Of a stretch of DNA of 40,826 nt, positions 8,154 through 28,401 are shown one piece after another. This DNA is from Candidatus Thorarchaeota archaeon (GTDB taxonomy: Archaea > Asgardarchaeota > Thorarchaeia > Thorarchaeales > Thorarchaeaceae), in NCBI GenBank assembly GCA_048882485.1, contig JBHLRP010000028.1, positions 1 to 40,826 of the forward strand. Direction: 5' to 3'. The notes beneath the pieces were generated by a model, which saw only the letters and a list, made by a program, of their open reading frames with translations, ran no database searches and had not been told where the DNA came from. Positions within the stretch are counted from its first letter, which is position 1. Each line of letters starts with the position of its first letter. The position numbers were made by a program, and so were the translations under genes.

Positions 8154-10295
8154 TCAGAGTGTGTACCTATGCCTGTCCAGAAACTCTTGCTTCTTTGCGG
8201 GATTCCAGCTTGCGTATGCCTGAAGATATCCAGTTATTCTACTAATTATCTCAACACCAACATAGCCGCACTTGGGACAGGGAATTTTCTCTAGGTCCTT
8301 AATCGATGCAAATCTAGCATTGCGCCAGTCTATACCAGTCTGATAGCCGCATGAGGTGCAGTTTAGAACATCCTTCGTGAATGCAAAGTAGCTGTTCAAT
8401 GTGTCCTTCGCAATCTTCTTGGTTAGCTCCCATAATGCGTCAGGATCTGGATTTGCTTCTCCCAGATAGATATGGGTCAGAGCTCCGCCGTCCATATAGG
8501 GATGGAACATTCCTTCCTTCCTGATACGGTCACTGAGAGCGAGGTTGGCTCCTACGTACAGAGTTGTGCTGTTTGTGTAATAGGGGTTGATATCAGTGCC
8601 CTTCAAGTACTTGCGAATTCCCTTGTAGGCCTTGTAGTCTTTCCTGGCCAATCGACCAGCTGCGCTTTCAGCAGGGGTTCGTGTGACACCGAAGTGCAAG
8701 CCTGTTTCCTTTTCGAACTCTTGTGACTTCCTCTTCAGATGTTTTAGCACCTTTATTCCGAACTTTGTACCCTCTCGCTCATGAAGATGGAAACCTGTGG
8801 CGATCTTTGCCATCTCCTCAAAGCCAACTGTTCCAAGCAAGAATTGTCTCCGACTCATGTCAATGAGCGGATCTCCATTGGGTTTCGGTTGAGTGTAGAA
8901 AGGCACACTGCCACTAGCCATCAGTCGATCCATGACGGCTTTCTTCTCGAGAATGACTTCCTTTGATAGTTCGATGTATTCATCCAACTTAGCAAAGAAA
9001 TGCTCCTCGTCACTGCGGCCCAACCATGCAGCACGACCAAAGTTTGGAGTCACCATTTGGGAGGCCCCAAAGACCATATTTCCAGACAAGAATTCCTCCA
9101 GCTCCTCGTCACTGCTAGCTGTCCAGAGATGTGAACAGCAGCTACTGCATCCAGCCTCGATCTTCGATCTCCAGTTGAGATAGTTCTCATAGTAGGGAGA
9201 TCCAAACTTGGCGGTGAGCTCAGCGACAAGTCGCCATGATTCATCATATTCTGGCTTCATGAACTCCTTGCGCAGGACAACATTTGGCTTTGGAAAGTTG
9301 AAGCCCTTACCCTTTTTGTCACCCTTTAGCATAATCCGCATAAAGGCGTTGAAGAACTTGTTCGCCTCTTCCTCGTAGTCGCCATAAGTTGAACCATCGG
9401 TCTTTCCACCAGGAAGAGTTGCAGGCACATCTTTCATAATATTGGGAATGCCCGGCGTAAGGTCGACACTTGAGAAGATGACCTGTCCACCTCTGGCTAC
9501 ATACTGCTGGGTTAGTGTAAATATAAGCTGCTGAGCTGCCTGCTTTATCTTTCTGTCAGATTGTCCTCTCATGTATGGAGCAAGGAAAGTATTGTAGAAG
9601 AAATATCCTTGACCACCAGCAAATGAGCTTTGAGCTGCCGCAAGCCAGATTGCTGAGTGGTTCACTGCAACATTGAGATGCTGAGCGGGTCCAGCCGCGG
9701 AAGAATGAATCCCACCAAGCCCATCAGGAGCAATGCCGGGGATAAGCACCTGACGAAGGTCCCAAGTTGCACAATAGTCGCGTGTGGAGAAGTATTCGCG
9801 GTCTTTGATATAGATTTCACCGCGCATATGAGCATCTGCGAGGTGAGTCGGAATTGTAAGATAGGTGTGCTGCTCCATCACTTGGTCGTGCACCAGTTTG
9901 GCAATGGTCTCAGGATTTCTCATCATGTTTGCATTGTTGGTGTGTTGAGCTGGATTGAGTATCAACTGATTAAGGTCGTACATAGGCACTCCTACACGAG
10001 TATAGAGGATGCGTTCTTTCTCGAATCCCAGCTCAGCAAGAATCGAGTTGCACATCTCTCGAATCAGCGGACCAGACAGAAACTTGATCCCAGAAGCGGC
10101 AATCCGATCCATCACCTTGAGGCCCACAAGCTCTGCATCCCCTCGAGAGAGCTTTGCCTCAATGATGAGACTCTCGATGATACGGTCTACATCAAATGGT
10201 TCCAGAGTACTACTGGTAGTTCTTACCTTTGGTAGCTTCTTCTCTCTCACCTTCAGATCCTCATAGGATACTGCAGAACTATGGACATCCGTCAT
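8154..10295 (-). CDS. nrdD: Class III (anaerobic) ribonucleoside-triphosphate reductase with N-terminal ATP cone
   Basis: ATP cone (EPFDVDRIIESL...LIRE), AHMRGEIYIKD, YC, GGQG, SSCC finger loop, TPAES, YTNS, CTSC/CPKC Zn site, SRITGYL glycyl-radical motif. Confidence 0.96.
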   Translation of the reverse strand: MTDVHSSAVSYEDLKVREKKLPKVRTTSSTLEPFDVDRIIESLIIEAKLSRGDAELVGLKVMDRIAASGIKFLSGPLIREMCNSILAELGFEKERILYTRVGVPMYDLNQLILNPAQHTNNANMMRNPETIAKLVHDQVMEQHTYLTIPTHLADAHMRGEIYIKDREYFSTRDYCATWDLRQVLIPGIAPDGLGGIHSSAAGPAQHLNVAVNHSAIWLAAAQSSFAGGQGYFFYNTFLAPYMRGQSDRKIKQAAQQLIFTLTQQYVARGGQVIFSSVDLTPGIPNIMKDVPATLPGGKTDGSTYGDYEEEANKFFNAFMRIMLKGDKKGKGFNFPKPNVVLRKEFMKPEYDESWRLVAELTAKFGSPYYENYLNWRSKIEAGCSSCCSHLWTASSDEELEEFLSGNMVFGASQMVTPNFGRAAWLGRSDEEHFFAKLDEYIELSKEVILEKKAVMDRLMASGSVPFYTQPKPNGDPLIDMSRRQFLLGTVGFEEMAKIATGFHLHEREGTKFGIKVLKHLKRKSQEFEKETGLHFGVTRTPAESAAGRLARKDYKAYKGIRKYLKGTDINPYYTNSTTLYVGANLALSDRIRKEGMFHPYMDGGALTHIYLGEANPDPDALWELTKKIAKDTLNSYFAFTKDVLNCTSCGYQTGIDWRNARFASIKDLEKIPCPKCGYVGVEIISRITGYLQAYASWNPAKKQEFLDRHRYTL

Positions 10296-10298
10296 TAA

Positions 10299-10598
10299 TC
10301 AATTCACTCCAAGCGACTTGCGTACTTCTTCAACAGTGGGAACTTCACCACTATACAATAGTTTTAGCGACCCCTGGTTCTCAAGGACAATGCTAGGAGT
10401 GGAAGCAATGAAGATTTGGTTCTCAAGCATTCTGAAATCCAAGTCTTCATCGACCTCTTTCAAATCAACAACGCGCATAGGATACCCGGTCCCCGCAAGG
10501 GCCTCCTCTACGACTAACTTGGCTGCTGGACAGTTCGCACAGTCTTCTTGCGTGAAGATATATAGCGTGCTATCTGTTGTCTTGTCCTCTCCCGGCAT
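10299..10598 (-). CDS. Thioredoxin/NrdH-like redoxin
   Basis: FTQEDCANCP CxxC motif and STPSIV cis-Pro motif; ends 3 bp upstream of nrdD. Confidence 0.85.
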   Translation of the reverse strand: MPGEDKTTDSTLYIFTQEDCANCPAAKLVVEEALAGTGYPMRVVDLKEVDEDLDFRMLENQIFIASTPSIVLENQGSLKLLYSGEVPTVEEVRKSLGVN

Positions 10599-12392: not shown

Positions 12393-12983
12393 ATGGTAGA
12401 CGTCTTCATCCATCCCCTAGCTGTTGTTGATGAAGGGGCACATATCGGTGAAGGCACCAAGGTCTGGCACTTCGCACATGTCAGGGGATCTGCCAAGATA
12501 GGCAAGAACTGCACTATTGCTAGAGATGTTTACATTGACGCGAACGTCACAATTGGGGATAATGTCAAAATCCAGAATGGCGTATCAGTCTATCAAGGAG
12601 TGACACTTGAAGACGAGGTATTCTGTGGTCCACATATGACCTTCACAAATGACCTACACCCAAGAGCTCATGGTGAGTTTTGGGAGATTACTGAAACACT
12701 TGTCAAGCGGGGAGCTTCAATCGGTGGTAATGCCACGATTATCTGCGGCATCACGTTGGGAAGCTACTGTATGATTGGAGGGGGTGCCGTAGTCACAAAA
12801 GATGTGCCAGCTCACGCACTGATTGTTGGCAATCCAGGCAGAATAACCGGTTTTGTGTGCAGATGTGGTCGACCGCTTAAGAATGAGGTAAAACGGCAGA
12901 AAGTCAGTGTGACATTTGAATGTGGAAAATGTAAAGAGGAAACTACAATCTCAATGTCTGATTACAGGAAAATGGTCAGGTAG
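12393..12983 (+). CDS. Hexapeptide-repeat N-acetyltransferase (WbpD/WlbB-like) with C-terminal Zn ribbon
   Basis: IHPLAVVDEGAHIGEGTKVWHF, NVKIQN, FTNDLHPR, VGNP, CRCG...CGKC; ATG at 12393. Confidence 0.88.
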   Translation: MVDVFIHPLAVVDEGAHIGEGTKVWHFAHVRGSAKIGKNCTIARDVYIDANVTIGDNVKIQNGVSVYQGVTLEDEVFCGPHMTFTNDLHPRAHGEFWEITETLVKRGASIGGNATIICGITLGSYCMIGGGAVVTKDVPAHALIVGNPGRITGFVCRCGRPLKNEVKRQKVSVTFECGKCKEETTISMSDYRKMVR

Positions 12984-12990
12984 AGAGCTC

Positions 12991-15090
12991 GTGTCACACA
13001 TCTACAAGAAATTCGTCAATGACCGCGCAGCTGGGCTCATAGACAAGACGGCTCAGATTCGGAATTGCACCGTGATAGCACATATTGACCATGGGAAGAC
13101 TACACTCACCGATTCACTCATTGCATCATCTGGACTCCTCTCGAAGGAAGTAGCTGCTACTGCTCGACTCTTGGACTATGATATGATTGAACAAGAACGA
13201 GGAATCACGATAAAGGCGTCAGGCATTTCTCTTATTCACCATATGGATGGACTGGACTACCTCATTCATCTTATTGACACACCCGGCCATATCGACTTTT
13301 CAAGCCACGTAACAAGAGGGCTTCGACTCACTGACGGAGCTATTATTGTTGTTGATGCTATCGAGGGGATCATGGTCCAAACTGAAACTGTTACAAGACA
13401 AGCAATGAACGAGCTTGTGCGTCCAGTGTTGTTTGTCAATAAGGTTGATCGGCTCATCAAAGAGAAACGGTTGGATGCTAATCGTGTAGCAGAAGAGATC
13501 AACGGGACGGTTCGTGAATTCAACGCTATGCTGGGCAAGTATCTCGATGATGATACTCTAGAGAAGTGGGAGGTTTCTTTTAGCAAGTCATCACTGTGTA
13601 TCGGCTCGGCATTGGACAAATGGGGACTCGATGTGTCGGTCCTCAAGAATGCATCTGGTGGAAGTGATGTTACAGGAGACCTAGCTAGTGCGTTCATGGC
13701 GATACTCGAAGAAATAGTGTTAGCGTACTCCAAGGAGGAGCAAGGCATCCTGGCAGAGAAATATCCTGTTGCCGAAGTCCTGTTGGATTCGGTGGTTAAG
13801 ACCTGTCCGGATCCAACTACAGCTCAATCCTATCGACTTCCAGCATTCTGGACACCACAGGGCAACAAGCATGATAAGAGACTTCTTGAATCGAGAAGCA
13901 GTGGTCCAGCTGTTCTGCTGGTAGGAAACGTGCAGCCTGACAGACACGCCGGCCTTGTTGCGGCAGTCCGGGTGTTCGCAGGGACACTCAAGCGAGCCGA
14001 GCCTTTGACAAATCTCAGGACAGGAAAGGAAGGAAAGCCTCTCCAGGTTGGAATCTTCATGTCGAAATCGAGAGTCGCACTTCCCCAGGTCCCTGCTGGA
14101 AATCTTGCGTTCATCACAGGAGTCAAGGATATTGCTGTAGGTGACACTCTTGTAGCAAAGGGCACTGAAGGAGTATCTCCCATGATGGAGCTCGAATACC
14201 CCACAGAACCTGTTGTCACATATACAATTGAACCAAAGAAGCTGTCGCAGCTCAGTGAGATTCAGGAACCCATTGCACAGTATGCGATGACGGATCCTGC
14301 ATTAGATTTTGAAGTGAATCCGGAAACTGGGGAGATGCTTCTTTCGGGTGCGGGCGAGTTACACATCGAAGTGAGTATTGAAAAGCTAGCTCGACAGGGA
14401 ATCGAAGTCCTACTTGGAAAGCCAATGGTTCTACTAAAGGAGCAGATGACAAAAGATGGGACATCGTGCGCAGGAGGAAACGAATCGACTAGCATCTTTA
14501 CTGTCCAAGCAATCCTCATTGAAGAAGGAGTCAATGTCGAGGAGTACGGCACACTCCTAGACTCAGAGCCAATGGGGGGGTGCTATCTCATAGATTCCAC
14601 TGGGCAAATCAATCCCTATGGCGAAGAGCTGGAATGGATCAGAGAGGCATTCAGGACATTAATAGGAAGCGGGCCAGCTAGCGGCGAAAGACTACGACAC
14701 CTTGCAATTATTCTGGAGAAGGTGCAGCTACGATATGAGGCTCAAGAAACTTCTTGGAGAGATGTGACCATTCCGCTGATACAAGCCATGAGATGCAGCG
14801 TGGAATCTGGAGACCCTCAGGCCCTAGAACCATGGGTTAGACTTGAGATTAGCGCACCTGAAGAGCATGTTGGAGGACTTGCTGCAATTTTGGCAAGAAG
14901 AAAGGGGAGAGTCCATGAAATAAACTCTGATAGAACTCTATACCGGATAGATGCTGAGATTCCAGTACGCGAGTCATTCGGCCTTGCAAGGGAGATTAGA
15001 ACATCTACATCAGGTTGGGCATCATGGGGAGCAAAGGCTGGAGGATATAGAAGAGTCGGAGCGGACGATGAAGAGGAGCCAGTCTATTAG
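12991..15090 (+). CDS. Elongation factor 2 paralog (aEF-2p-like) lacking the diphthamide motif
   Basis: AHIDHGKTT, ERGITI, DTPGH, NKVD, GSAL, GELHIE, LEP...PEE, ESFG...IR..TSG. The domain IV tip reads LRYEAQETSWRDV instead of LHEDAIHRGPAQ. Likely start is GTG at 12991, after the preceding stop. Confidence 0.88.
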   Translation: MSHIYKKFVNDRAAGLIDKTAQIRNCTVIAHIDHGKTTLTDSLIASSGLLSKEVAATARLLDYDMIEQERGITIKASGISLIHHMDGLDYLIHLIDTPGHIDFSSHVTRGLRLTDGAIIVVDAIEGIMVQTETVTRQAMNELVRPVLFVNKVDRLIKEKRLDANRVAEEINGTVREFNAMLGKYLDDDTLEKWEVSFSKSSLCIGSALDKWGLDVSVLKNASGGSDVTGDLASAFMAILEEIVLAYSKEEQGILAEKYPVAEVLLDSVVKTCPDPTTAQSYRLPAFWTPQGNKHDKRLLESRSSGPAVLLVGNVQPDRHAGLVAAVRVFAGTLKRAEPLTNLRTGKEGKPLQVGIFMSKSRVALPQVPAGNLAFITGVKDIAVGDTLVAKGTEGVSPMMELEYPTEPVVTYTIEPKKLSQLSEIQEPIAQYAMTDPALDFEVNPETGEMLLSGAGELHIEVSIEKLARQGIEVLLGKPMVLLKEQMTKDGTSCAGGNESTSIFTVQAILIEEGVNVEEYGTLLDSEPMGGCYLIDSTGQINPYGEELEWIREAFRTLIGSGPASGERLRHLAIILEKVQLRYEAQETSWRDVTIPLIQAMRCSVESGDPQALEPWVRLEISAPEEHVGGLAAILARRKGRVHEINSDRTLYRIDAEIPVRESFGLAREIRTSTSGWASWGAKAGGYRRVGADDEEEPVY

Positions 15091-17384
15091 CTCCGAAGGT
15101 AGTATCTACGATTCATTACTTCGCCGAGCATGGAGAGGAGTCTTCTGTCAACCATTGAAATATCATCCATCATCCTCAGAGCACGGGAAATATTCGAGAA
15201 GACCGCATTGAGATAGGGCTTGGCTTCTACCATCTCAGACTGTTCTACCATCTGAAGATAAGCATCTGCGATTTTCATTAGGCCCAGCCAGTCATCAGCA
15301 AGAATGAACTGATACTGACCTCTATCGGCGCTTTCGGGGAATGTTTCGAATCTATCTCTGTCGATCACCGCATCATATTGATTCTCTAGAGCAAGAGCAA
15401 ATCGAAGTAGAACATCAGAAAGCGACACGCATGTTGCTTGAATGAACTCAGCGGATTCTGGAAATGCGGGTTCAACTACTCCTGCAGTTCGAAGTGCAAG
15501 AGCTGCGCTATATAGGCCAGTTGCAAGGTTGCTATAATCCCGATTCTCAAAGAAGGACTTCACTGTCTGCGCCAGAGCCGTCTGCCCCCTCCAGTACATG
15601 GCTAGAAGAGCATCAATCTCTTCGACTCTGGGAGTAACAGGGTTTTCAATCCTAGCTGAGGGTCCCAAGCTAATTGATTCCTGATTGAACTTTGCAGTTG
15701 ACAGAGCCTCCATCAGAATCCCAACCCTTGATAGATCGGACCTATGTGTGGTAAGGCTACTTGCACGGCTTTTCAGGACTGACCAAGACTCATTAAGAAA
15801 TGGAAGAACCAGGGATACCCCCTGAACGAAAATTGAATCATCCTGAACTCTGGCATCCGCTAGGAGTCTGTCAATATCATCTAGGAGACGCACGACCCTA
15901 GAAGGGAGCGTTTCCCCGTGGCGGAAAGCAATCCATACTACGTTATAGGTTGCAATCGCAACCTCAACAAACGCCCGGGAATCTGTAGGAAATAGGGGTA
16001 CGAACTGAACCAACACCTCACGTAGCGATCCTTGGGCTTCTTCTGAGTATTCAGCAGACCGCATCATGGATAGTGAAAGACCCAGCTTACTGCCCAGTAG
16101 CTCCAACTCAGAAACCCGACCCTTCTGATGAAGTTCTTCACGTATCTGAATAGCCCGCTGAAAGGCGGCTACTCCTGTGTCCCAAAACTCATCTGATTCA
16201 GTGCTCAGACAAACCCAGCCTAAGGTGTTCTCAGCTCTCGCCAAGTCTGCTGCCATATCATGACCTGATGATTCCATCTGTTCAAGAATGGTTTTGGCAC
16301 GTTCTAGATACTCAATACTCTTCGTTGTATTGTCATGGTCTGATAGAAGTCCATGTGCAAATCCAAGTCCAGCTAGAATTCTGAACAGGTTAAGTGATTG
16401 ATGAAAATCAGGCGCCTCAATCCGCTCATAGACTGCAAGCCCCTTTTCCAGGCGGTCTATTGCCTCTGGTACACCCTCTCTCCAACCATTCGCAAGTATA
16501 CTTGACCCGACAATGAGATGTGCTAGACCAAGATCGTCTTTTGTATCTGGAAAACGAATCCCTCTTTCCTCATACAGCTGCGCCGCTCTATCGCTGATAG
16601 CGCGCGCTTCTTCATGATGTACAGTATCATCGCGAGTTTCGTTTACTCCCAATTGAAGAACGACAGCTGCAAGCTTCTCTTTGTCTTCTTCGGCCTCAAC
16701 AGATTTCTCTAGGTCCAGAAGGATGTTCCTAGATTCCTGAAACATTCCTAGCTCTGTAAGTACACATGAATAGTTGAACATCGTTTCAAATAGCAGGTCC
16801 TGGTTGCCCATTCTGGCGGCAATCTTGGAGAGTCGGTTAAGCAGCAGCTCAGCACCAGCGAAGAATCCCTCTTTTATCAAGATGCTTGTGAGATAGTGAA
16901 CTTCATGAATCGCAAGAGCAGTGGAGGCTTCATGTCCGCGTGAGTGAATGGCATCAAGTGTCATTGATATCTCGTCAATAATGAAAGGCAAGAGAGGTCT
17001 CAGATTGAGATTCAAAGCAGATGTGACAGATTGAGATAGTTGGCCCAATATATCCAGCAATTGGGGAATTGCTTCAATATCAGGCAGTAGTTCCGTTTCA
17101 CTTCGACGGAAGCTGTTTGTGTATCGAACATCCAAGAGGGCTAGCATCTCTGGGAGGATACGATTCTCTTTGAATGACAAACGGACAGTCAATTCGGTGA
17201 GCTTAGCACTAGCCAAGCCAGGCCTTCGGAGGATAATCTCCTCAAAAACGCGCGCAATCTCAAATAATAGCTCGTTTTCAGTGGTGTTGCCTATTGCCAA
17301 ATTCTGAATCGCTGAGAGCCCATCATCAAGGGATAGCGATGCACATAGCACATCTCTCAGTGTCACAATCAGCAATGACTCCAC
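15087..17384 (-). CDS. Large alpha-helical (TPR-like) hypothetical protein
   Basis: 765-aa ORF, helical, with TPR-like segments (LARAENTLGWV...AAFQRAIQIREEL); GGAG RBS. Confidence 0.7.
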   Translation of the reverse strand: MESLLIVTLRDVLCASLSLDDGLSAIQNLAIGNTTENELLFEIARVFEEIILRRPGLASAKLTELTVRLSFKENRILPEMLALLDVRYTNSFRRSETELLPDIEAIPQLLDILGQLSQSVTSALNLNLRPLLPFIIDEISMTLDAIHSRGHEASTALAIHEVHYLTSILIKEGFFAGAELLLNRLSKIAARMGNQDLLFETMFNYSCVLTELGMFQESRNILLDLEKSVEAEEDKEKLAAVVLQLGVNETRDDTVHHEEARAISDRAAQLYEERGIRFPDTKDDLGLAHLIVGSSILANGWREGVPEAIDRLEKGLAVYERIEAPDFHQSLNLFRILAGLGFAHGLLSDHDNTTKSIEYLERAKTILEQMESSGHDMAADLARAENTLGWVCLSTESDEFWDTGVAAFQRAIQIREELHQKGRVSELELLGSKLGLSLSMMRSAEYSEEAQGSLREVLVQFVPLFPTDSRAFVEVAIATYNVVWIAFRHGETLPSRVVRLLDDIDRLLADARVQDDSIFVQGVSLVLPFLNESWSVLKSRASSLTTHRSDLSRVGILMEALSTAKFNQESISLGPSARIENPVTPRVEEIDALLAMYWRGQTALAQTVKSFFENRDYSNLATGLYSAALALRTAGVVEPAFPESAEFIQATCVSLSDVLLRFALALENQYDAVIDRDRFETFPESADRGQYQFILADDWLGLMKIADAYLQMVEQSEMVEAKPYLNAVFSNISRALRMMDDISMVDRRLLSMLGEVMNRRYYLRS

Positions 17385-17457: not shown

Positions 17458-18168
17458 TCATTCTAGAACGAAGTCATTCCAGACTCTAGATGTGTCTGTG
17501 CCTCGCATTCGTTCCATTCTGACCTTGTAATTGGGTTGTTCACCTTCATCATCAATCTTGAACCGGAGGACTGCATCCGCCATGTAGGAAAATGTTGCAT
17601 AGGTCTTCTCTTCATGGACACCTTCCTCAAGAATAAACATGATACTATGAGAACTCTCTGTGACTCGGCCACTGAGCCTTTGGACTGCTCTTGGCATGGT
17701 AGCTGGATTAGAGTGAAGAATGAGCGTTGACAGACTATCAACAACAACACGAGCAACAACAAGCTCATCTAAGACCTCAGAAAGCACAATTCCTAGCTCA
17801 CTGATATCGTCAACCTTGGCGAGAGAATGAACAGTGCTAGACTTGGGAGCACCCATACGTTCGGAGTAGCCATCGATGAACACAAACTGACTAGAATGCT
17901 CAAAGTCATCAATGGACCATCCATGGCGGCTCATATCATTCCTAATAACTCTTGGTGAGACATCAGTTGTCACAAAGACTGCGGGGAATCCAAGCCTGAG
18001 TCCATCATAGAGAAAGGCTTCAGCGTAGGTTGTCTTCCCAGATCCCAAAGGACCAAGGAGAATGTATGAAACTTGAGTAAGCTGACCAAACTTGACAAGG
18101 TCCCCGATCATAGGCCGTGCAGTGGCCGGCGGGGGTTCAGTGCTTTTCGATTTCGTTTCTTCTCCCAA
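17458..18168 (-). CDS. Single-domain KaiC/RAD55-family ATPase with degenerate catalytic glutamates
   Basis: GPLGSGKT, VTTDVSP (EE absent), RVVVDSLS, FSYMADAV, ERMRGT. Confidence 0.85.
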   Translation of the reverse strand: MGEETKSKSTEPPPATARPMIGDLVKFGQLTQVSYILLGPLGSGKTTYAEAFLYDGLRLGFPAVFVTTDVSPRVIRNDMSRHGWSIDDFEHSSQFVFIDGYSERMGAPKSSTVHSLAKVDDISELGIVLSEVLDELVVARVVVDSLSTLILHSNPATMPRAVQRLSGRVTESSHSIMFILEEGVHEEKTYATFSYMADAVLRFKIDDEGEQPNYKVRMERMRGTDTSRVWNDFVLE

Positions 18169-18194
18169 TAGTCACGCCTCAAGTTCTATAGATT

Positions 18195-18941
18195 CTATAC
18201 TCCAGTACTGATTTCTGCTGGCCATACTCTAATGCCTTCATCCGTTATCCTCATTGAGTGGATTCGCGAGCTGTGTTTTGAACCTCTGAGTTTCAGTATC
18301 TCTATCGACCGCGACCTAGATGTTTCGCTAATCATCTCATTGTAGAGTACAATAACACCACTGGCCAAGAATGCTTCGATATCAAACACACCCAGACCAT
18401 CATGTTGTGCCGGAATCTCACTTGTCAGGATTAGTGTTGTACCTGCACGCGTTATATTGGCGGCGAGCTTGAAGAACTCTTCGCGGAGGATGTCACGACT
18501 CCGAAACTTGTAAGCCAGAATGGTAAGGGTATCAATCACTACCCTCTTGGCACCAAGCTTCTTCACATGATTGAGAATGATGGCTTCCAAGCCTGAGAGG
18601 TCGAAGCTTGGATACTCACCGATTTTCATCGGAGTGACCTCCTTCGAAGGAGACAGATCTACGATGGCCAGTTTCTTCTTCTTCACCAGTGCATCGAGGT
18701 CCATTCCAAATCGCATCATGTTTCTCTTGATTGAGATCGGAGATTCTTCTAGAGTCACAAGAACTCCTGCTTCATCATACTGGGTTGCACCATTATACAG
18801 GAACTGATTTGCCATGATACTCTTTCCTGTTCCTGCTCGACCTGCGATGAGGATTGTGTCGCCTTGTGGGAATCCTCCCTCAATTAGCTCATCCAATCCT
18901 GGAATCCCAGTCTTTACTCTCTCTATAGCGAATTCGCTCAC
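18195..18941 (-). CDS. kaiC: Single-domain KaiC-like ATPase resembling the CI domain
   Basis: RVKTGIPGLDELIEGGFP, GRAGTGKS, VTLEESP, DLSP...FDLSGL, RVVIDTL, IEILKLRGS.H, ITDEGIRVWP. Confidence 0.9.
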   Translation of the reverse strand: MSEFAIERVKTGIPGLDELIEGGFPQGDTILIAGRAGTGKSIMANQFLYNGATQYDEAGVLVTLEESPISIKRNMMRFGMDLDALVKKKKLAIVDLSPSKEVTPMKIGEYPSFDLSGLEAIILNHVKKLGAKRVVIDTLTILAYKFRSRDILREEFFKLAANITRAGTTLILTSEIPAQHDGLGVFDIEAFLASGVIVLYNEMISETSRSRSIEILKLRGSKHSSRIHSMRITDEGIRVWPAEISTGV

Positions 18942-19276
18942 TTTGATTCACCTCTCTTGGTTGCCACTTTCGCTCCCAGAATCATCTTCATTATCATATC
19001 AGGCTCTGGAATTCCCGTGACTGAAACACCACCAATCATTGTAGTTGGTAGTGCGAAGATTCCAAACTCTTCCGCAGCTTCGGGATTCTTACTCACATTA
19101 ATGACCTTCAGAGCGAAAATTCCTCCTCCGAAATCCGTTAGGGTTTCTCTCAGAACCTCTTCAGCTCTAGGGCAGAACGCACATGTGTCGGACTTGAATA
19201 AGACTACCTCGATCGGCTCGTCATCTTCTTCATCCTCCCCATTCTGGGAGTCCGTTGGTTCTATATCATTAGCCAA
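18938..19276 (-). CDS. Thioredoxin-fold protein with CxxC and KaiB-like sequence
   Basis: CAFCP motif; GIFALKVINVSKNPEAAEEFGIFALPT resembles KaiB [27 protein letters not shown] (recalled); 4-nt GTGA overlap with the kaiC-like gene. Confidence 0.8.
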   Translation of the reverse strand: MANDIEPTDSQNGEDEEDDEPIEVVLFKSDTCAFCPRAEEVLRETLTDFGGGIFALKVINVSKNPEAAEEFGIFALPTTMIGGVSVTGIPEPDMIMKMILGAKVATKRGESK

Positions 19277-19369: not shown

Positions 19370-19759
19370 TCATCGATACTTCAGTATCTTACGAATCTTG
19401 GTTGCCGCCTTGCCAACGGCTCTTGAATGATAGCGCACATTCCTAGGCATTATTGTCCCGAGTATCAATGCCTGAGTGCCCTGAGAAGAAATTCTTCTAA
19501 ACACCGCCTTGCCTTCTGAACATCGAACAGATATGTCCTTAGTCTCTCCAAGGGAGAGCTCATTTCTCACCCGTTCTACTGTGTCTGCAATATGGCCAGC
19601 CATCGCAGCTACCACATCAATATTGGTTGTGGGTGACACCGCATAGGCCATGACCAATCCATCATCTCTTGCAAGGACTGATGTTGTAAATCCGCCCTCC
19701 CTGTTCATCTCCTCTAACGTTTCGGTCAATGCTCGATAATCCGGACGCTCCGAGGTCAT
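19370..19759 (-). CDS. Roadblock/LC7 (MglB-like) domain protein
   Basis: SVLARDDGLVMA...DVVAAMAG...L.LGETKDISV; size and pattern typical of Roadblock. Confidence 0.88.
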   Translation of the reverse strand: MTSERPDYRALTETLEEMNREGGFTTSVLARDDGLVMAYAVSPTTNIDVVAAMAGHIADTVERVRNELSLGETKDISVRCSEGKAVFRRISSQGTQALILGTIMPRNVRYHSRAVGKAATKIRKILKYR

Positions 19760-19945: not shown

Positions 19946-20494
19946 ATGCCGAGTGAGTATCGCCTCAAGATCGTCATGTTGGGTGATGGTGCAGTAGGGA
20001 AGACAGCACTGACAATTAGATTCACCGAAGGAGGATTTGAGGCTGACTACAAGAGGACCATTGGCGCCGATTTCGCCCTCAAGGAGATTGAGCTAAAGGA
20101 CCTGGATGCCAATGTGACTTGCATTGTGTGGGATCTGGCCGGGCAGCCGCGTTTTGAATCAGTCCGCCAGGGTTTCTATCGAGGAGCTCGGGGAGGGCTT
20201 TTGGTATATGATGTGACTCGCCGTCGTACGTTTCTCAATATTGACAATTGGAAGAATGAATGCTTCGCAAATCTTGGAAATCCAATTCCACTCATAGTTG
20301 TGGCTAATAAGGTGGACCTTGAAGAGAGCCGCGTAGTTTCTAGAGAGGAAGGAGAGGAGTACGCCAAGAAGCACAACTTCCTGTATGTTGAGTCTAGTGC
20401 ACTCACGGGTGAGAATGTACAGGAAACGTACGCTACTCTTTGCAGAAACATTCTAGCTGAGGGAAAGGCAAAGGCGAAAAATAGCAAAGGGTAA
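19946..20494 (+). CDS. Rab-like small GTPase
   Basis: GDGAVGKT, TIGADF, WDLAGQ, FYRGA, NKVD, ESSAL; no C-terminal prenylation Cys. Confidence 0.95.
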   Translation: MPSEYRLKIVMLGDGAVGKTALTIRFTEGGFEADYKRTIGADFALKEIELKDLDANVTCIVWDLAGQPRFESVRQGFYRGARGGLLVYDVTRRRTFLNIDNWKNECFANLGNPIPLIVVANKVDLEESRVVSREEGEEYAKKHNFLYVESSALTGENVQETYATLCRNILAEGKAKAKNSKG

Positions 20495-20499: not shown

Positions 20500-21627
20500 C
20501 TATGTGCGTCTAGGTGTTCCTTTCAAAAGCCCCAGCGCTCGCTTGCATTGCCACAGGATGTAGAACACTCGCTTATCTCTCAGAACTTCATCTTCATATT
20601 GACTTGAGATGTCATTGAGCTTCTTTTCAAGCTCCGCTTGGCGGCTCTTTTCAGTGTCAGCTTCAATCTCAGATAGTAGGCTCTTGAATGGAGCGAGCAT
20701 GGCTTCCATCTCTTTAACCTCCCATCGTGTGATTGCACCTGAACCATCTGCCGTAAGAAATGCATCTGTATCAGGATACCACTCGATTCCATCGATCTCA
20801 GTGACTGTCCTACCCTCGCCCTCTATAGTATATGAGTCAGTAATCCAAACGAAAAGCTCCTTTTCACTTGACCCTGATGCCAAATACTTGCCATCCCAGC
20901 TGAAGGATAAAGCTCGAACCTCACCCTCATGCCCTATCAAGGTTCGCTCTGGTTTGAATGAGTCACCTTCTGTCTTCCAAATGATGATACTGTGGTCAGA
21001 GGATCCTGAAGCCATACCTTGTCCATCTCGTGTGAATTTCACAACATGCACTGCTGTCCGATGATCCTTGAGGCGGCCCAGCAGCTGCCCTCTATCGGCA
21101 TCCCAAACGGCTATTGTGCCATCAACTTCCCCTGAGATAATTCGCTTCCCATCAGGCGACCAGTCACATGTCACTACGTAAAGGGAATGCCCCTTGAGTT
21201 GATTGATCTCAGTGCTATTCGAAACATCCCAAATGCGTAGAGTCGTGTCACCACTCCCTGAAACAAGTCGGGTACCATCAGGAGAGAATGCAAGTGCCAA
21301 GACGGGATAACTATGACCTTCTAATTTCCCGATTAGATCTCCTGTTCGGATATCCCATAGCTTGACGACTCTATCAACACCGCCAGTAGCAACAACATCA
21401 CCCTGAGGACTGAAAGCGATAGATGTGCACAGGAATTCATCCTGTATTCGTTGCATCTCTTCGCAGCTCTGTGCGTCATAAAGTCTGATACTTCGGTCCT
21501 GCATGGCTGCAGCGAGCATCCTTCCAACCTTATTCATCGCAAATCGACGCGTGATCTCTGAACCACGTTCAGCCTGAGGTTTCATTACCCTTGGTTGAAG
21601 GAAAAGGGAAAGCTCTCTCTGCTCCAT
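20500..21627 (-). CDS. WD40-repeat (7-blade beta-propeller) protein with helical C-terminal tail
   Basis: Seven repeats, e.g. GHSYPVLALAFSPDGTRLVSGSGDTTLRIWD; ATG at 21627 after GGTG (alternative GTG at 21636). Confidence 0.93.
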   Translation of the reverse strand: MEQRELSLFLQPRVMKPQAERGSEITRRFAMNKVGRMLAAAMQDRSIRLYDAQSCEEMQRIQDEFLCTSIAFSPQGDVVATGGVDRVVKLWDIRTGDLIGKLEGHSYPVLALAFSPDGTRLVSGSGDTTLRIWDVSNSTEINQLKGHSLYVVTCDWSPDGKRIISGEVDGTIAVWDADRGQLLGRLKDHRTAVHVVKFTRDGQGMASGSSDHSIIIWKTEGDSFKPERTLIGHEGEVRALSFSWDGKYLASGSSEKELFVWITDSYTIEGEGRTVTEIDGIEWYPDTDAFLTADGSGAITRWEVKEMEAMLAPFKSLLSEIEADTEKSRQAELEKKLNDISSQYEDEVLRDKRVFYILWQCKRALGLLKGTPRRT

Positions 21628-21748
21628 GTAGCGCACCTTTCAAGCGGGTTCTAGCCACGCCGACCTGAGGCAGTGCTAAAAATGTTATGAAAGGCTCACT
21701 TAGCTAAGTCATCACAATAAGTATTAAGACAGGCGCAAACGAGCACGA

Positions 21749-22972: not shown

Positions 22973-23776
22973 TTACTGACCTAGAAGCTTCAATAGGGTC
23001 ACTTCGCTGAGAAGACCTAGCTTTTCTGCAATGCCTTCAACGGCAAGGAGCGCAGGCGAATTGTTGGGCAGGTCAAAAACAGGCTTGCCCAAATAATTCA
23101 GTTCTGCTACTTTATCATCGTTTGGAATCATGCCCGCAAGAAAGAGATCATTCTCCTCAAGTCCATTTGAAACAGCTTCAACAAGATTGGATGGAATCCG
23201 ATTGCCGATCACTACCAGCTTCTTGAAGTCAATATGCACTTCTTTCGCGAGGTCTCTTATTCGCAAGGCTGCTTCAAAGGCAGCTCGGGAGGAGTCAATG
23301 ACTATAATGAGAATGTCGACATTTCGATTAGTGCGACGACTGAAATGCTCGAGACCTGCACTCATATCAAGTAGAGTAATCTCATAATTCAATGTCAGAG
23401 TGTCGAGAATCTGGGTGAGGATTCTGTTGACATAGCAATAGCATCCTTCACCTTCTGTGCGACCCATTGCCAAGAAATCGTATCGATCGCCTTCAATGAG
23501 AGCCTCGAAGATTTCCCCTTCAAGAATGTCTTGTTTCGCTGCAGAGGCAGGTAGAGTTCCATCATCAATGTTCTTCCGCATCCTGGTGGCAATTTCTCCA
23601 ACTGATGCCGGAACATCAACTCCCAAGGCTCGAGGGAGATTCATCACAGGATCTGCATCGACTAGAAGCAATGACCGTTGGGTCTTCTCTACAATAATTC
23701 TGGATAGGAGTCCGGCGGTAGTGGTCTTTCCAACGCCACCCTTTCCGGATACTGATATCACTAGACGCTCTTTCAT
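22973..23776 (-). CDS. cooC: CO dehydrogenase/ACS nickel-insertion ATPase (CooC/AcsF)
   Basis: SGKGGVGKT, VDADP, EGEGCYC, DMSAGLEHFSR; ATG at 23776. Confidence 0.92.
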   Translation of the reverse strand: MKERLVISVSGKGGVGKTTTAGLLSRIIVEKTQRSLLLVDADPVMNLPRALGVDVPASVGEIATRMRKNIDDGTLPASAAKQDILEGEIFEALIEGDRYDFLAMGRTEGEGCYCYVNRILTQILDTLTLNYEITLLDMSAGLEHFSRRTNRNVDILIIVIDSSRAAFEAALRIRDLAKEVHIDFKKLVVIGNRIPSNLVEAVSNGLEENDLFLAGMIPNDDKVAELNYLGKPVFDLPNNSPALLAVEGIAEKLGLLSEVTLLKLLGQ

Positions 23777-23838
23777 TCTTCTTACTCCCAATAGGAAAGA
23801 GGGGCATTTTGCCCCTATGACCATTTAGGTATGGTCTC

Positions 23839-25254
23839 TCACTCTTCTTTCCATTTGCCTGCTTGGAGATACTTTGGTATTCCACTGGAGTCTTGTGGAC
23901 CGACCTTAACAGTCCAACCAGATGCCTCTTCGGTTTCACCACTAATTCTAGCAGCCATTCCTGGACTAATGAGAATCTTGTGCTTGACCTTATCAGCAAT
24001 CTTGGTTTCTTCAAGGGTTTCCGCCACCCTCTCTGCCGTCAGCTTTCTACCAGCCACAGCGGATTGGACACTCATTCCTTCTGTATCTACAACCACCAGA
24101 TAGGCATTCACTCCTGCCTGTTTGATATCACTCTCAACTGTGAAGTAAGTGAGTGCAAAGTTGGTTGTATACATCACAGGAGAATCTGGCCCCACATCAC
24201 CAAATTCCTGAAGACCAGCCTCTACCGCAACAGGCTTCACAGGGTCTGTGTAAAGGTTGCTCCTGAGGAATGTAAGTGGCAGGTTTGTCCACATGTCCAA
24301 GCTATGGACGATAATTGCATCAGAGTACCTGACAATCATTGCCGCGGATGTAAGAACTTCATCCCATTTGGTTAGCTCTGGTGCTGCTCCCTCCTTATGG
24401 TCAGCCCAGACTGAAATAGGTGTGGCAAGCAATGGATAGCCCACGAGCTCGTTCTCCTCAATAGTCGCAGCCCTTCTGAGCTGTGTAAAATTGTCAACGG
24501 TAGTACCTAGACCAGCTCTTGAAGCTGTGCCTGGATCGAGTACAAGCTCTTCTACCCCCATAGCCCTCAGTGTATTAACAAGAGTAGCTAAGTCGTCAAG
24601 GCCGCTTGGTGCATATGCCACCAAAGGGAGATTGTGCTTCACAGCAATATCACCCACTTGAGACCAGGTGTCCAATGTCGCTGCATAAAGCAGCGGTCGC
24701 TTGTCAGCAATTGCACTTGCTGCTGCAGCCAGCATCTCAGGATTAAGCGAGCACAAGATAATGGGCCAGTCGGTTAGCTCAGCCACCTTCTTTGCAGTTT
24801 TGGCGAATATCTGCGGATCTTGTGAGACCCCTCGAAGGGCAATTCCATCTAATTGGAGATTCTGGCCAATATACACGTACGTCCAGTCCTCAATCGCCTT
24901 TACCCTATGAGCAAGTTTCTCGCCCTCGAGTGTATCATCCACATCAACAAAGAATGATATTGGATTGGAGTATCTGAGATCATGCCTATACAAGACCAGC
25001 TTTCCACCAATAGATGCTGCTTTTTCGCCGGCTCCAATCACAACTTCTCTGACTGGGGGACGAATGAGGTCTTCTAGCTTGGTCAGCTTCTTGGCATACT
25101 GAGCCTCTTTATAGAGAGGAGTGCATGCTGCAAGCTTCACCGTGTATTCGGCAAGCTTTGTGGCAAAGGCCATGCAGTTGGCTTCTCCGCACTCCTGGCA
25201 GTTGGTACCGGGTAATAGGGGGTAAATGTCCAATGGACCTGGAAGCTTTGCCAT
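23839..25254 (-). CDS. cdhE: ACDS complex gamma subunit (corrinoid FeS protein, large)
   Basis: LPGTNCQECGEANCMAFA...C FeS motif; YTDP.KP..V; TTNFALTYFTVESD; VGPQDSSGIP. Confidence 0.97.
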   Translation of the reverse strand: MAKLPGPLDIYPLLPGTNCQECGEANCMAFATKLAEYTVKLAACTPLYKEAQYAKKLTKLEDLIRPPVREVVIGAGEKAASIGGKLVLYRHDLRYSNPISFFVDVDDTLEGEKLAHRVKAIEDWTYVYIGQNLQLDGIALRGVSQDPQIFAKTAKKVAELTDWPIILCSLNPEMLAAAASAIADKRPLLYAATLDTWSQVGDIAVKHNLPLVAYAPSGLDDLATLVNTLRAMGVEELVLDPGTASRAGLGTTVDNFTQLRRAATIEENELVGYPLLATPISVWADHKEGAAPELTKWDEVLTSAAMIVRYSDAIIVHSLDMWTNLPLTFLRSNLYTDPVKPVAVEAGLQEFGDVGPDSPVMYTTNFALTYFTVESDIKQAGVNAYLVVVDTEGMSVQSAVAGRKLTAERVAETLEETKIADKVKHKILISPGMAARISGETEEASGWTVKVGPQDSSGIPKYLQAGKWKEE

Positions 25255-26448
25255 CTAGGTCCCCTCCGGTATTTCGATTGTGGTCCAGTCTGCATATTCT
25301 GCAATCGTTATCGTTCGCCTCTCTTGTAGCCAATCAATAAGGTCATGGACTGTCTTCATTGCTGCAGGATGCATCATCATGAAGAGGTCATTGCCAGCTA
25401 ACAGGAGTGATAGTGCAGTCACACTCTCCCATATTGGGCCACGAAGTTCCCTCGGTCCGAGTTCTGGTGCCTTGAGCCAAGCTTCTCTAGCAGCCCAAGC
25501 ATTTGTTGTGCCTGAACTGATGGGATATTGCAATTCATTATCACCCAATAGCCCCGCCAGACGCATCCTTTGCATCATAGTGAACGCATATTCAAGACCG
25601 TACCCAAGTGCAGCAGTAGTGGGATCGATTACTATCTGATCTGGTGTAAGCCACTCAATCAGCCTCCGATTCAATTCCTTCTGTTCGTTGATGTCGAGCG
25701 AAGTCCATGACAAGACAATCTGTTCATGCTCCTTCGCAGCCACAGCCACAGGTTCATAGACATCGATTGTTGCAGAGCAGAGCAGGGTTCGTTCACCTTC
25801 ACATACCTCTGCAGCTTTAGCAAGAACGGGTCCATCCTTCTCAGGGTCGCCTGCAGAACCAATGAGCACGGGAACCTTGACTGCCTGTAGAACCTCTTCA
25901 ACAGTCTTTGCGGCCTTTTGAGGTGAAGTGTTTCCCAGTTGTCTGTCTGTACTGATGAGGTGTATTGTTATCACGTCAGCTCCGAACTTATTCACGCAAA
26001 GCTTTGCCCATTCCGCGGGATCATCCAGTACCTCCCTGTAGTGAGTCTTGACTGCTTTCGCCAGCGGAATTGGCATGTCAAAGACGTCAGCAGCAATAAT
26101 GGGCGGGTTCTTTGGTGGTGCTTGAAACAAATCCCATGCAGGTGCAGTATGACCGCCAATGGTCACTGTATTGCTCCTTGATCCGCCCTCCTTCTTGGTA
26201 GCCCCAATTGTAATCTCCCGAATCACACCAGGATACTCACCAAGGGGCGGCTTGAACTGGGCAGGAATAAGTGACTTTGGCATCTCAATTGCAGCCTTGG
26301 CTGCAGCCTGCGCTAGTCGTTGGACCATGGGACGAAGAGCGAGCTTCAGTTCGTCTACCTCAATTGTGACGTGCTCCAGCTCCAACTCGGCGAAATCACC
26401 AAAGATGTCGTCTAGCGACTGTCCTCTTCCTTCCTCATGGGACGTCAT
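25255..26448 (-). CDS. cdhD: ACDS complex delta subunit (corrinoid FeS protein, small)
   Basis: TIGAT..EGGSR, DPAEWAK, DPTTAALGYGLEY, TNAWAAREAW, MMMHP. Confidence 0.97.
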   Translation of the reverse strand: MTSHEEGRGQSLDDIFGDFAELELEHVTIEVDELKLALRPMVQRLAQAAAKAAIEMPKSLIPAQFKPPLGEYPGVIREITIGATKKEGGSRSNTVTIGGHTAPAWDLFQAPPKNPPIIAADVFDMPIPLAKAVKTHYREVLDDPAEWAKLCVNKFGADVITIHLISTDRQLGNTSPQKAAKTVEEVLQAVKVPVLIGSAGDPEKDGPVLAKAAEVCEGERTLLCSATIDVYEPVAVAAKEHEQIVLSWTSLDINEQKELNRRLIEWLTPDQIVIDPTTAALGYGLEYAFTMMQRMRLAGLLGDNELQYPISSGTTNAWAAREAWLKAPELGPRELRGPIWESVTALSLLLAGNDLFMMMHPAAMKTVHDLIDWLQERRTITIAEYADWTTIEIPEGT

Positions 26449-27851
26449 TTCTTCTTTCCACCCTTCCCTGTTCCGGTCTTTCTGATGATTACTTTCTCGG
26501 CGTAGATCTTGGCATTCTTGAAGATAATCTCAAGCCCTCCGCCAACTCCACCCACCATAGCGGTCAGTTCGCCAGGCACTGCAACGTAGTCATCCGAAAC
26601 CTCAGCCAGAGCAGTTTCCTCTTCTTCCGCAATCTCCACCCATCGCTCCACAATAGGATGACTTTTTTCCTTGAGGAAGGTCTTCAAATCCGATATGGTC
26701 ATGACTTCATTCTCTGTTGGAATCTTGTCTCTGATGTCCTCAGGCATGAACTCATAGACTCGTTGCTTGATTGAATCAGGCATCCATACTACTCTATTGT
26801 AGCCACCATCAACCTGCAAGAACCTTGGTGAACGCATATACTCTATGGACAATCCATGGAATCCTGGTACCTGTCGGCCGCCCGCAGTTGAGTCCGCCAT
26901 ACTAGAGAAAGGCAGTCCGTTCACAGTTTCTCCTTTGAAGTCTCTATGAACCACCCCTAGGCCATCCACTTCAGGAATCACGAAAGCGATTGCTTCGAAG
27001 CAGCCGCAGCTCGTGTGAGGTTTGTCAAAGGCGCTGTACAAAGCCACTGAGGTGACTTTGCCGAGTGACTTCTCTGCATAAAGCTGATTCACTCCTGTAT
27101 ATTCGCCTGTGTACTCGTCTAATGTGTCGCCTTTGGGGATTGCATAGAGTGGGCCCTTAGGATCCACCCGCGCAGCTGCTCGACCATCAAACCAGCTAAT
27201 GGCTCCGCAGTTTGCGTACCTCTGTGGAGTAATGGTGCACACATGAGTCGGAGCAAACGACTGACACAATGAACATCCGTAGAAAGTGTCAACGTCTGCG
27301 TCACTCAAGCCTCTAGCACGCGCATCCCTCTCATTGTATCTGTTTATGGCCTCATCATATCGTTCAGCAATCTTCTCAGAATCAGTGAAGAATGTCACCT
27401 GTATCTTCTCGATGATGTTCATCTCACTCTTGAAAAGCCGAATCAGGACCTTACCCAGATGTTCTAGGGCGTTGAATCCCTTCTCGAAAGACTTCTTGCT
27501 GAGCCGAATCCAGATGTCGTATCGCTGGTTTAGATGCATCATGCCTTCTACAAAGTTCACGTACTCGTGAATTCGTCGTTCAATGACGCCCTCAAGGTCA
27601 GGTTCGATCTCCTTCCCCGCAACCTCCACTAGAATGCCAAAAGGATGATAGCTCCCTTCCTCCATGTCCTTGAGATCCGGGCCGATGATTGTGACCTTCT
27701 CATCCTCAATCTCGCCCATCTCTCTTGCCAAAGCCAGCTCGAACTTCTGTTCCATCTTCGGACCGCCGAGCTCAACAAACATGTCTTTTCCTCGGACTCG
27801 TTCGCCTTCGTATACTACGCCTACATCTACTGGTATATCTTCAAATGACAT
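26445..27851 (-). CDS. cdhC: ACDS complex beta subunit (acetyl-CoA synthase)
   Basis: YEGERVR, MHLNQR, FYGCSLCQSFAPTHVC, HTSCGCFE A-cluster ligands. Confidence 0.97.
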   Translation of the reverse strand: MSFEDIPVDVGVVYEGERVRGKDMFVELGGPKMEQKFELALAREMGEIEDEKVTIIGPDLKDMEEGSYHPFGILVEVAGKEIEPDLEGVIERRIHEYVNFVEGMMHLNQRYDIWIRLSKKSFEKGFNALEHLGKVLIRLFKSEMNIIEKIQVTFFTDSEKIAERYDEAINRYNERDARARGLSDADVDTFYGCSLCQSFAPTHVCTITPQRYANCGAISWFDGRAAARVDPKGPLYAIPKGDTLDEYTGEYTGVNQLYAEKSLGKVTSVALYSAFDKPHTSCGCFEAIAFVIPEVDGLGVVHRDFKGETVNGLPFSSMADSTAGGRQVPGFHGLSIEYMRSPRFLQVDGGYNRVVWMPDSIKQRVYEFMPEDIRDKIPTENEVMTISDLKTFLKEKSHPIVERWVEIAEEEETALAEVSDDYVAVPGELTAMVGGVGGGLEIIFKNAKIYAEKVIIRKTGTGKGGKKK

Positions 27852-27852
27852 C

Positions 27853-28401
27853 TCATTTTCCTCCTCCTACGAATTCTACGATTTCATCTAACACTGTGTG
27901 CCACTGCTTCTCCTTCATATTAGGAAAGGACCAATCTGCATGCGGTTGATAGTAGCGCCCCAGGGAAATTGTAGTCAGATGGGTCCCAAAATTCATTGTC
28001 GCAGATAGCAGTGTCCATTGCATGTAGTATGGGATTCCAAAGACCATGAGGAGATCGTGGGGACCCTTGCCAGTTGGGCCAGTCCACGTCTCATCCTGAA
28101 GATAGAATGCGACTTCCATAGCACCCATAGACTTGGCACCAGTAAAGCCCTTCTCAATGAAGGCCTTGATGGCTCCACCAGTGGCAATGACAGGCATCTT
28201 GCCTGCCTCTGCCAGAGCAATTGCGTAATCTATCATGTCGCCCTTTCCATGCTTCTCGTCCACAGCATCTGATCCCACCACAAGGAGTGGCTTCTTGGTC
28301 ATCTTGAAAGACCTTTTCAGTTGATCCACTTTTGTGAGTGACTTGGCACTATCAGGTCCGCAAATCTCACCAGTCTGCCATGGTACGGGTCTCATAACCA
28401 T
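27853..28401 (-). CDS. cdhB: ACDS complex epsilon subunit
   Basis: KKPLLVVG, W.G..GKG.HDL, YYQPHADWSFPN; lies between cdhA and cdhC. Confidence 0.93.
   Translation of the reverse strand: MVMRPVPWQTGEICGPDSAKSLTKVDQLKRSFKMTKKPLLVVGSDAVDEKHGKGDMIDYAIALAEAGKMPVIATGGAIKAFIEKGFTGAKSMGAMEVAFYLQDETWTGPTGKGPHDLLMVFGIPYYMQWTLLSATMNFGTHLTTISLGRYYQPHADWSFPNMKEKQWHTVLDEIVEFVGGGK

Follow-up and report, generated by a model that had tools for sequence, protein, structure and literature searches.

A thioredoxin-KaiC operon of Thorarchaeota as a candidate KaiB-like signalling switch beside a Rab-like GTPase

Does a gene for a thioredoxin-fold protein with a CxxC dithiol, placed directly ahead of two genes for single-domain KaiC-family proteins, represent a Kai clock taken apart, or does it belong to a device of another kind? 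The question is raised by a 40,826-nucleotide stretch of Candidatus Thorarchaeota DNA (GenBank assembly GCA_048882485.1, contig JBHLRP010000028.1, analysed in full and hereafter called the window), which is contig C28 of a genome that is 90.5% complete. We refer to the thioredoxin-fold protein as Trx and to the two KaiC-family proteins as KaiC1 and KaiC2. An earlier sequence-only reading had seen in them a split, redox-coupled Kai timer or switch. The module does not look to us like the two halves of a cyanobacterial clock; on balance, we think it somewhat probable that it is a signalling switch, composed of a KaiB-like adaptor and an active/inactive pair of KaiCs, that is wired to a small GTPase.

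The core of the locus is as the sequence-only reading had described it, with respect to open reading frames, spacing and motifs: the end of the Trx gene shares 4 nt (GTGA) with the beginning of KaiC1, 26 bp separate KaiC1 from KaiC2, and the C32-x-x-C35 dithiol, the KaiB-resembling segment of Trx and the KaiC1 loop are all present as written. The unit extends further than these three genes, however. A roadblock/LC7 gene ends 93 bp ahead of the Trx gene and a gene for a TPR-like helical solenoid lies 73 bp 3' of KaiC2, giving a co-oriented minus-strand run roadblock-Trx-KaiC1-KaiC2-TPR, and a further 186 bp separate the roadblock gene from a Rab-like GTPase gene; these three neighbours had been missed. 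All the orthologues of this KaiC1 come from Candidatus Thorarchaeota. Across the 56 Thorarchaeota loci examined (L031-L086), roadblock-Trx-KaiC1 was found in all 54 with upstream sequence and KaiC2 in all 54 with downstream sequence. The same gene order was recovered in 30/30 relatives' loci, as far as their contigs extend, and agrees with that of a sister-order genome (locus L095), so that the three-gene order is conserved in relatives. The TPR gene is kept downstream in the Thorarchaeota loci and is absent from that place in L095. For control, 30 thioredoxin loci and 30 KaiC loci of Thermoproteota were compared: no KaiC lies within 1.5 kb of the thioredoxin gene in any of the former, and no thioredoxin gene neighbours the KaiC in any of the latter. 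Besides KaiC1 and KaiC2, the whole genome contains no full KaiC-family gene. Neither a fused CI-CII KaiC nor a KaiA was found in this 90.5% complete genome, which extends the absence of kaiA already remarked upon for the window; a fused KaiC1-KaiC2 of the Thorarchaeota type was likewise not found among longer proteins, which is weak evidence. A scan of the stretch for sigma-70 promoters and terminators is uninformative for an archaeal host.

KaiC1 has intact Walker A (residues 34-41), catalytic glutamate (E65-E66) and arginine finger (R219) motifs, and its S431/T432-equivalent positions are A190 and F191, so that it has no phospho-acceptors there. The sequence-only reading took it for a free-standing CI domain with a B-loop-like insert, and this description is correct in one respect: alongside the intact ATPase motifs, KaiC1 bears a docking motif of the CI type at residues 109-118, in which F113 and D114 align with F122 and D123 of Thermosynechococcus elongatus KaiC, and mutation of F122/D123 weakens the binding of both KaiB and SasA (10.1101/2020.06.17.158394). 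The Phe-Asp pair is kept in 57/57 KaiC1 orthologues and residues 109-116 are almost invariant among them, the remainder of the loop being prone to drift. In pairwise scores KaiC1 reaches 190 bits to the CI and 69 bits to the CII domain of PDB 8zn5, and 160 bits to PH0186. In the other respects the description does not hold: loop length had to be ruled out as a CI marker, as most archaeal single-domain KaiCs, KaiC2 included, have 18-27 residues at this place, and a tree computed with the loop excluded from the alignment puts KaiC1 outside the canonical double-domain CI clade (support 100/99). A wider clade uniting the Trx-adjacent KaiCs with CI is not rejected by the approximately unbiased (AU) test (p-AU 0.25), and the NCBIfam archaeal KaiC models all remain below cut-off for KaiC1. 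As far as the alignment goes, only the C-terminal Phe-Asp-Leu motif of the KaiC1 loop is CI-like.

Across archaeal KaiCs this docking motif tracks the presence of a Trx/KaiB neighbour, over few independent lineages. In the archaeal discovery set, motif and neighbour occur together at 19 loci, the motif alone at 1, the neighbour alone at 0 and neither at 68; for held-out new loci, scored with a motif definition fixed beforehand, the corresponding counts are 26, 3, 10 and 54. Most of the 10 held-out misses are canonical KaiBC pairs in which the motif differs by one letter, and a looser motif, chosen after the data had been seen, gives 33, 0, 3 and 57. Separately, we noted a common Asgard lrp-kaiC pair (L099-L114, L329), in which a single-domain KaiC without the docking motif stands directly behind an Lrp/AsnC regulator.

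The docking of Trx on this loop, as the sequence-only reading envisaged it, was predicted by a model of the complex: KaiC1 with ADP and Trx scored 0.82, against 0.01 for the best control, a pass that may reflect memory of solved KaiB-CI and indicate likeness rather than binding by this copy, because like complexes are already solved (KaiB-CI, 5JWO; SasA-CI, 6X61). Of 80 solved complexes, 58 attained the mark set for this score, as did 2 of 110 mismatched pairs. The partner has a predicted local distance difference test (pLDDT) value of 88, and the runs share at least 98% of their contacts. The predicted interface sets KaiC1 94-124 against Trx 27-38 and 61-91, with the closest contacts between F113/D114/L115 of KaiC1 and A75-L76-P77 of Trx, and includes the Trx active-site residues 31-34. 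The modelled binding is thus of the KaiB-CI mode and uses the thioredoxin substrate groove at once; therefore, KaiC1 would cover the active site of Trx.

The second ATPase is of a different nature. In KaiC2, the two Walker motifs, A and B, and the arginine finger (R222) are preserved, and its catalytic Glu-Glu is replaced by D69-V70 in 59/59 orthologues. The loop at the B-loop position has 21 residues, versus 6 in CII, and is of the long archaeal type; the best PDB match, by sequence and by structure, is PH0284 (Z 27.0, versus at most 24.3 for clock KaiC); and the AU test rejects KaiC2 as sister of CII (p-AU 0.007, with a long-branch caveat). KaiC2 was accordingly discarded as a CII half, which leaves the unfused CI-CII double ring of the sequence-only reading, taken in the clock sense, without support. 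Thus, of the affinities then suggested for the two ATPases, the KaiC2-CII grouping is rejected, the placement of KaiC1 within CI fails and the wider clade with CI is left standing. From its residues and matches we class KaiC2 as an inactivated archaeal KaiC, i.e., an iKaiC in the sense of PMC5847659.

The Rab-like GTPase is, by its sequence match, the orthologue of the crystallised Thor-Rab (PDB 7EZB). Thor-Rab was cloned from contig LRSL01000056.1 (SMTZ1-45); its intrinsic hydrolysis is slow, and no regulator of it is known (PMC10933270). Its source contig corresponds to our locus L052, which carries the module. The best PDB matches of the roadblock protein are LAMTOR2 (E 1e-4). Its C80 is invariant (53/53) and aligns with a LAMTOR2 cysteine, and could be either a thiol target or a structural residue. 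A WD40 gene convergent with the GTPase gene is present here, in L040 and in most other Thorarchaeota loci; in loci from outside this genus it is followed closely by a second Ras-like gene, giving a GTPase-WD40-GTPase-roadblock block. The genes discussed and their surroundings are collected in Table 1.

Table 1. Genes of the module and other features of the window
Feature	Position in window	Strand	Description
Trx	18938..19276	-	112 aa, TTG start; MJ0307/MTH807-type small thioredoxin-fold protein
KaiC1	18195..18941	-	248 aa; intact single-domain KaiC-family ATPase, PF06745 237 bits
KaiC2	17458..18168	-	236 aa; degenerate single-domain KaiC-family protein (iKaiC), PF06745 101 bits and DUF7504
Roadblock/LC7 protein	19370..19759	-	129 aa, first in co-oriented run; PF03259 28 bits
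Rab-like small GTPase	19946..20494	+	182 aa; phmmer E 1e-84 to 7ezb
TPR-like helical solenoid	15087..17384	-	765 aa; weak TPR_12, Atlas feature matches to TPR clusters 0.92-0.94
WD40 propeller	20500-21636		convergent with the Rab gene
EF-2-like GTPase	12916-15090		divergent in sequence; convergent with the TPR gene, which it overlaps by 4 nt; also found as neighbour in L095, L252 and L253
Anaerobic ribonucleotide reductase	8154-10598		with a small glutaredoxin-like gene (10302-10598)
Carbon monoxide dehydrogenase/acetyl-CoA synthase and heterodisulfide-reductase-like clusters	22973-37503		

The signalling switch that we favour could work as follows. KaiC1 would be an ATP-hydrolysing ring subunit, the exposed loop of which carries the CI-type docking motif, and the co-translated Trx would act as a constitutively folded KaiB/SasA-like adaptor on this loop, probably in the ADP state, with the substrate groove (the cis-Pro strand, the G88 loop and active-site residues 31-34) as its binding surface. 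KaiC2 would bind nucleotide with poor hydrolysis and join KaiC1 either in a mixed ring, to which it would supply an arginine finger, or as a stacked ring. It would then relay the ATPase state onwards; the likeliest output would be the pair of roadblock and Rab-like GTPase together with a TPR scaffold, the TPR solenoid being a candidate for either scaffold or output. Redox activity of the dithiol is probable, and it may modulate docking, but the docking role would not need it.

Several observations, in addition to the solved precedents of the docking model, weigh against this proposal. Canonical KaiBC pairs make up most of the held-out positives, which added no new single-domain lineage. Motif and neighbour each change 4 times on the tree, and its supported branches yield only 2 independent pairs, which is not significant, and locus L329 has a Trx neighbour but a KaiC without the docking motif. 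As to the output, the GTPase gene is transcribed divergently from the Trx-KaiC run, the genome holds about 41 small GTPases and 16 roadblocks, and the fused GTPases in other lineages are Arf/MglA-like, not Rab-like. Finally, given the long branches, dead KaiCs from elsewhere are no more than candidate orthologues of KaiC2, and the GTPases of the different lineages are likewise candidate orthologues of each other.

Related modules in other Asgard archaea bear on the part played by the dithiol. In Atabeyarchaeia (L096, L098) a longin-like gene is accompanied by a Trx with CxxC, a KaiC and a small GTPase; family f18 (L097) has two Trx, one of them without CxxC, followed by a KaiC and a dead KaiC; Freyarchaeum and family f7 (L165, L166, L178) combine a cysteine-less Trx with a KaiC and a dead-KaiC::GTPase fusion, to which the Freyarchaeum module adds a roadblock plus another dead KaiC; Heimdallarchaeum (L167, L143) has a KaiC fused to a dead KaiC and then a Trx with CxxC; L185 has a helix-turn-helix::Trx fusion without CxxC ahead of a double-domain KaiC; and the metagenome locus L329 has a Trx::iKaiC fusion behind its KaiC. 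The CxxC is thus absent from L165, L166, L178, L185, L329 and one of the two Trx in L097. What recurs is a Trx with an active and a dead KaiC, frequently accompanied by a small GTPase, and the dithiol comes and goes. Together with the conserved gene order, the docking model and the motif-neighbour link, the GTPase neighbours and the fusions speak for the signalling switch. Because the sister modules fuse parts or lose the CxxC, redox gating would appear to be optional.

This bears directly on a special case of the signalling switch, in which Trx would remain on the KaiC1 loop or leave it according to the oxidation state of C32/C35, thiol redox thereby being passed on to the ATPase and the GTPase state. 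We entertain it as a tentative possibility. It accords with the CxxC being kept in 57/57 Thorarchaeota orthologues and also in Atabeyarchaeia, Heimdallarchaeum and L097, with the position of residues 31-34 inside the predicted interface, with the invariant roadblock cysteine, and with thioredoxin-reductase-like genes in the genome that score 335 and 306 bits, just below cut-off. However, several sister modules keep the KaiC motif yet have lost the CxxC, and neither KaiC1 nor KaiC2 has an invariant cysteine for exchange. Moreover, oxidation alters the thioredoxin surface little, and some thioredoxin partnerships, such as that with T7 DNA polymerase, are redox-independent, which further counts against such gating.

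The affinities of Trx itself bear on a second alternative. Besides C32-x-x-C35, Trx has a cis-Pro-type P77 and an acidic, disordered N-terminal stretch of 18 aa; C32, C35, P77, G88 and P90 are invariant in the 57 Thorarchaeota orthologues. It scores 48.9 bits with TIGR00411 and 27.9 bits with KaiB TIGR02654, both below cut-off (92.75 and 145.3, respectively), and 26.8-27.1 bits with KaiB PF07689 (cut-off 27), aligning over residues 39-78 only. In the PDB it matches 1FO5 with E 3e-10, against E 6e-5 for KaiB. In hhalign comparisons, the Trx profile scores 153.9 against MJ0307-type thioredoxins, a value inflated by the building of that alignment through a search with the Trx profile (TIGR00411 provides independent support), versus 56.6 against KaiB, for which generic small thioredoxins score 54.1. 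An AlphaFold2 model, with pLDDT 82-89 across residues 21-100, shows the canonical Trx topology, and a fold search matches it to fold-switched KaiB 5jwo_B (Z 12.7; root-mean-square deviation 1.7 over 83 residues) as well as to ordinary thioredoxins (Z up to 13.1). Thus, profiles name the MJ0307 type and not KaiB as the best match, and in fold Trx is about equally close to both fold-switched KaiB and ordinary thioredoxins. The segment described by the sequence-only reading as very close to cyanobacterial KaiB is indeed identical to a real cyanobacterial KaiB at 16 of 27 residues; however, none of the 58 copies resembles KaiB more than this one, the median among orthologues being 11/27 (6/27 for MJ0307-type thioredoxins), and the overall profile is no closer to KaiB than that of generic thioredoxins. 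The striking match is thus partly peculiar to this genome, and the segment, which lies within the predicted interface, leans modestly towards KaiB.

KaiB P70/P72 and the Gly-Asp signature are absent from Trx, which has equivalents only of P63 (P77) and G78 (G88). In trees, KaiB forms one clade (100/99) that excludes Trx, and the Thorarchaeota Trx form their own (96/96); a placement of Trx nested inside KaiB was seen in neither tree. Joining Trx with KaiB is not rejected by the AU test (p-AU 0.53), the 90 columns being too few to resolve the deep order. On the strength of the profiles, the missing P70/P72 and Gly-Asp, the CxxC kept in 57/57 and the place outside the KaiB clade, Trx is not a KaiB, though it may be KaiB-like in its working; its sequence would make it a related subfamily of the MJ0307-type small archaeal thioredoxins, below the equivalog cut-off. 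A protein from elsewhere, P0331, adjoins KaiB in both trees with weak support; its gene lies beside cheR on a short contig on which no KaiC was seen.

These affinities suit the second alternative, namely that a housekeeping MJ0307-type Trx reduces some other protein (e.g., the roadblock at C80) and is merely co-transcribed with an active/inactive KaiC hub pair, without binding it. Beyond the profile scores and the near-tie in the fold search, the 14 Trx-like genes of this genome speak for it. We nevertheless judge it unlikely: it leaves unexplained the translational coupling, the near-invariant docking motif, the co-occurrence of motif and Trx in several Asgard lineages, the cysteine-less Trx partners and the Trx::iKaiC fusion. 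Trx-like paralogues in the genome are found at G000 C10:15424, C49:21572, C62:10882, C43:20310, C1:295093 and C8:46609, several being cysteine-rich or fused to proteins of about 590 aa.

Trx domains appear in other settings, too. Two Asgard PAS-Trx-PAS-like histidine kinases (L121:3736-5736, minus strand; L122:3465-5444, plus strand) carry a CxxC domain of the same type and may be of SasA-like architecture or redox-sensing kinases. A widespread Asgard family of about 500 aa joins an N-terminal CxxC Trx to two V4R domains (L115, L116, L117, L119, L120, L129, L130), in some cases beside a Ras-like GTPase; L407:5001-5849 (P0357) has a C-terminal CxxC thioredoxin domain fused to a Ras-like GTPase; and in family f16 (L169:4320-5653, L175:3500-5183) tandems of 2-3 small Trx genes, some without CxxC, stand directly beside a Ras-like GTPase, without a KaiC. 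A genuine kaiB with a double-domain kaiC is present in two Lokiarchaeota genomes (L135/L181, L136/L182), probably through horizontal gain, their family being otherwise mostly without KaiC.

The weakest explanation, in which KaiC1 and KaiC2 would stack as CI/CII rings, with phosphorylation of KaiC2 at S194/Y195 and with Trx completing an hourglass loop of the KaiBC type, can point to the kaiB-CI-CII-like gene order, to the Heimdallarchaeum two-domain version with its dead second domain and to S194 (56/58) and Y195 (57/58) of KaiC2, which lie at the aligned S431/T432 positions (some KaiC3 have a tyrosine at the second phospho-site; PMC5520375) and appear to be the one remaining point for a timer, but we consider it very improbable in the face of a KaiC2 that is no CII, lacking both the short CII loop and the glutamates needed for CII autokinase activity, of the AU rejection, of the missing KaiA and fused KaiC, of a Trx without the P70/P72 that slow KaiB fold switching, and of hosts that are sediment archaea, so that the proposed timer function is left without support.

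The module may also have an evolutionary side. The Asgard Trx-KaiC1 pairs could be surviving relatives of a proto-KaiBC, in which a redox-active, non-switching Trx bound a single-domain CI-type ring through the Phe-Asp loop; KaiB, by losing the CxxC and gaining prolines, and CI would descend from it, and in Thorarchaeota it would feed thiol redox and ATP state into Thor-Rab. An origin of KaiB from a thioredoxin has been postulated (PMC11551320); the scenario as a whole we regard as rather unlikely. No redox-active thioredoxin that binds a KaiC is so far known to us, and, whatever its ancestry, the operon offers a small, expressible candidate pair with one decisive mutation (F113A/D114A) and natural cysteine-less variants as controls, names candidate regulators of Thor-Rab, a crystallised Asgard GTPase, and is a concrete case for the idea of archaeal KaiCs as signalling hubs; it gives no evidence for an archaeal clock.

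Among known systems, the timers of the KaiABC/KaiBC type differ in having the fused CI-CII KaiC and, for KaiABC, the KaiA that this genome was found to lack. In the family of its best sequence and PDB matches, the MJ0307/MTH807 thioredoxins (TIGR00411; 1FO5, 1NHO), Trx agrees in length, topology and the order of CxxC and then Pro, and departs by its score under the family cut-off, its own clade, its acidic N-terminal extension and its fixed KaiC context. The GTPase side resembles the GTPase-roadblock pairs of Thor-Rab (7EZB), MglA/MglB and Rag/Ragulator, by virtue of the Thor-Rab orthologue and the LAMTOR2-like roadblock; to our knowledge, neither a KaiC nor a thioredoxin is part of these. Closest in the predicted docking are two cyanobacterial cases. 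With fold-switched KaiB on the CI B-loop (5JWO, 5JWR, 8FWJ) the operon shares the Trx fold, the cis-proline (Trx P77 for KaiB P63), a gene just ahead of a CI-like ATPase, the Phe-Asp docking residues and the loop predicted to be bound; unlike KaiB, Trx keeps its CxxC, shows no sign of a second fold and has not the prolines P70/P72, which are tied to fold switching (PMC11551320), and its partner is single-domain, without a CII phospho-ring. SasA's N-terminal domain (6X61, 1T4Y) is likewise a permanently folded Trx-like module, one that recognises the CI B-loop and passes its state on to an output, whereas the Thorarchaeota Trx is stand-alone with a dithiol and, in place of a kinase, would probably have the GTPase/roadblock pair or else the TPR protein as its output. 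Our literature search, beyond whose reach lay the main 2017 mBio KaiC-hub paper, found no description of the Thorarchaeota operon. The nearest precedent is a one-sentence bioinformatic remark by Makarova, Koonin and Albers (2016), which associates the KaiCs of arCOG01174 with a KaiB-like thioredoxin and holds that an archaeal oscillation system may be made up of them (PMC4858521). In the literature covered, that proposal comes without the operon, the docking motif, the GTPase link or an experiment; in common are the single-domain KaiC with a thioredoxin-family neighbour and the inactivated KaiC partner. An archaeal KaiC with a KaiB-like thioredoxin had thus been noted before.

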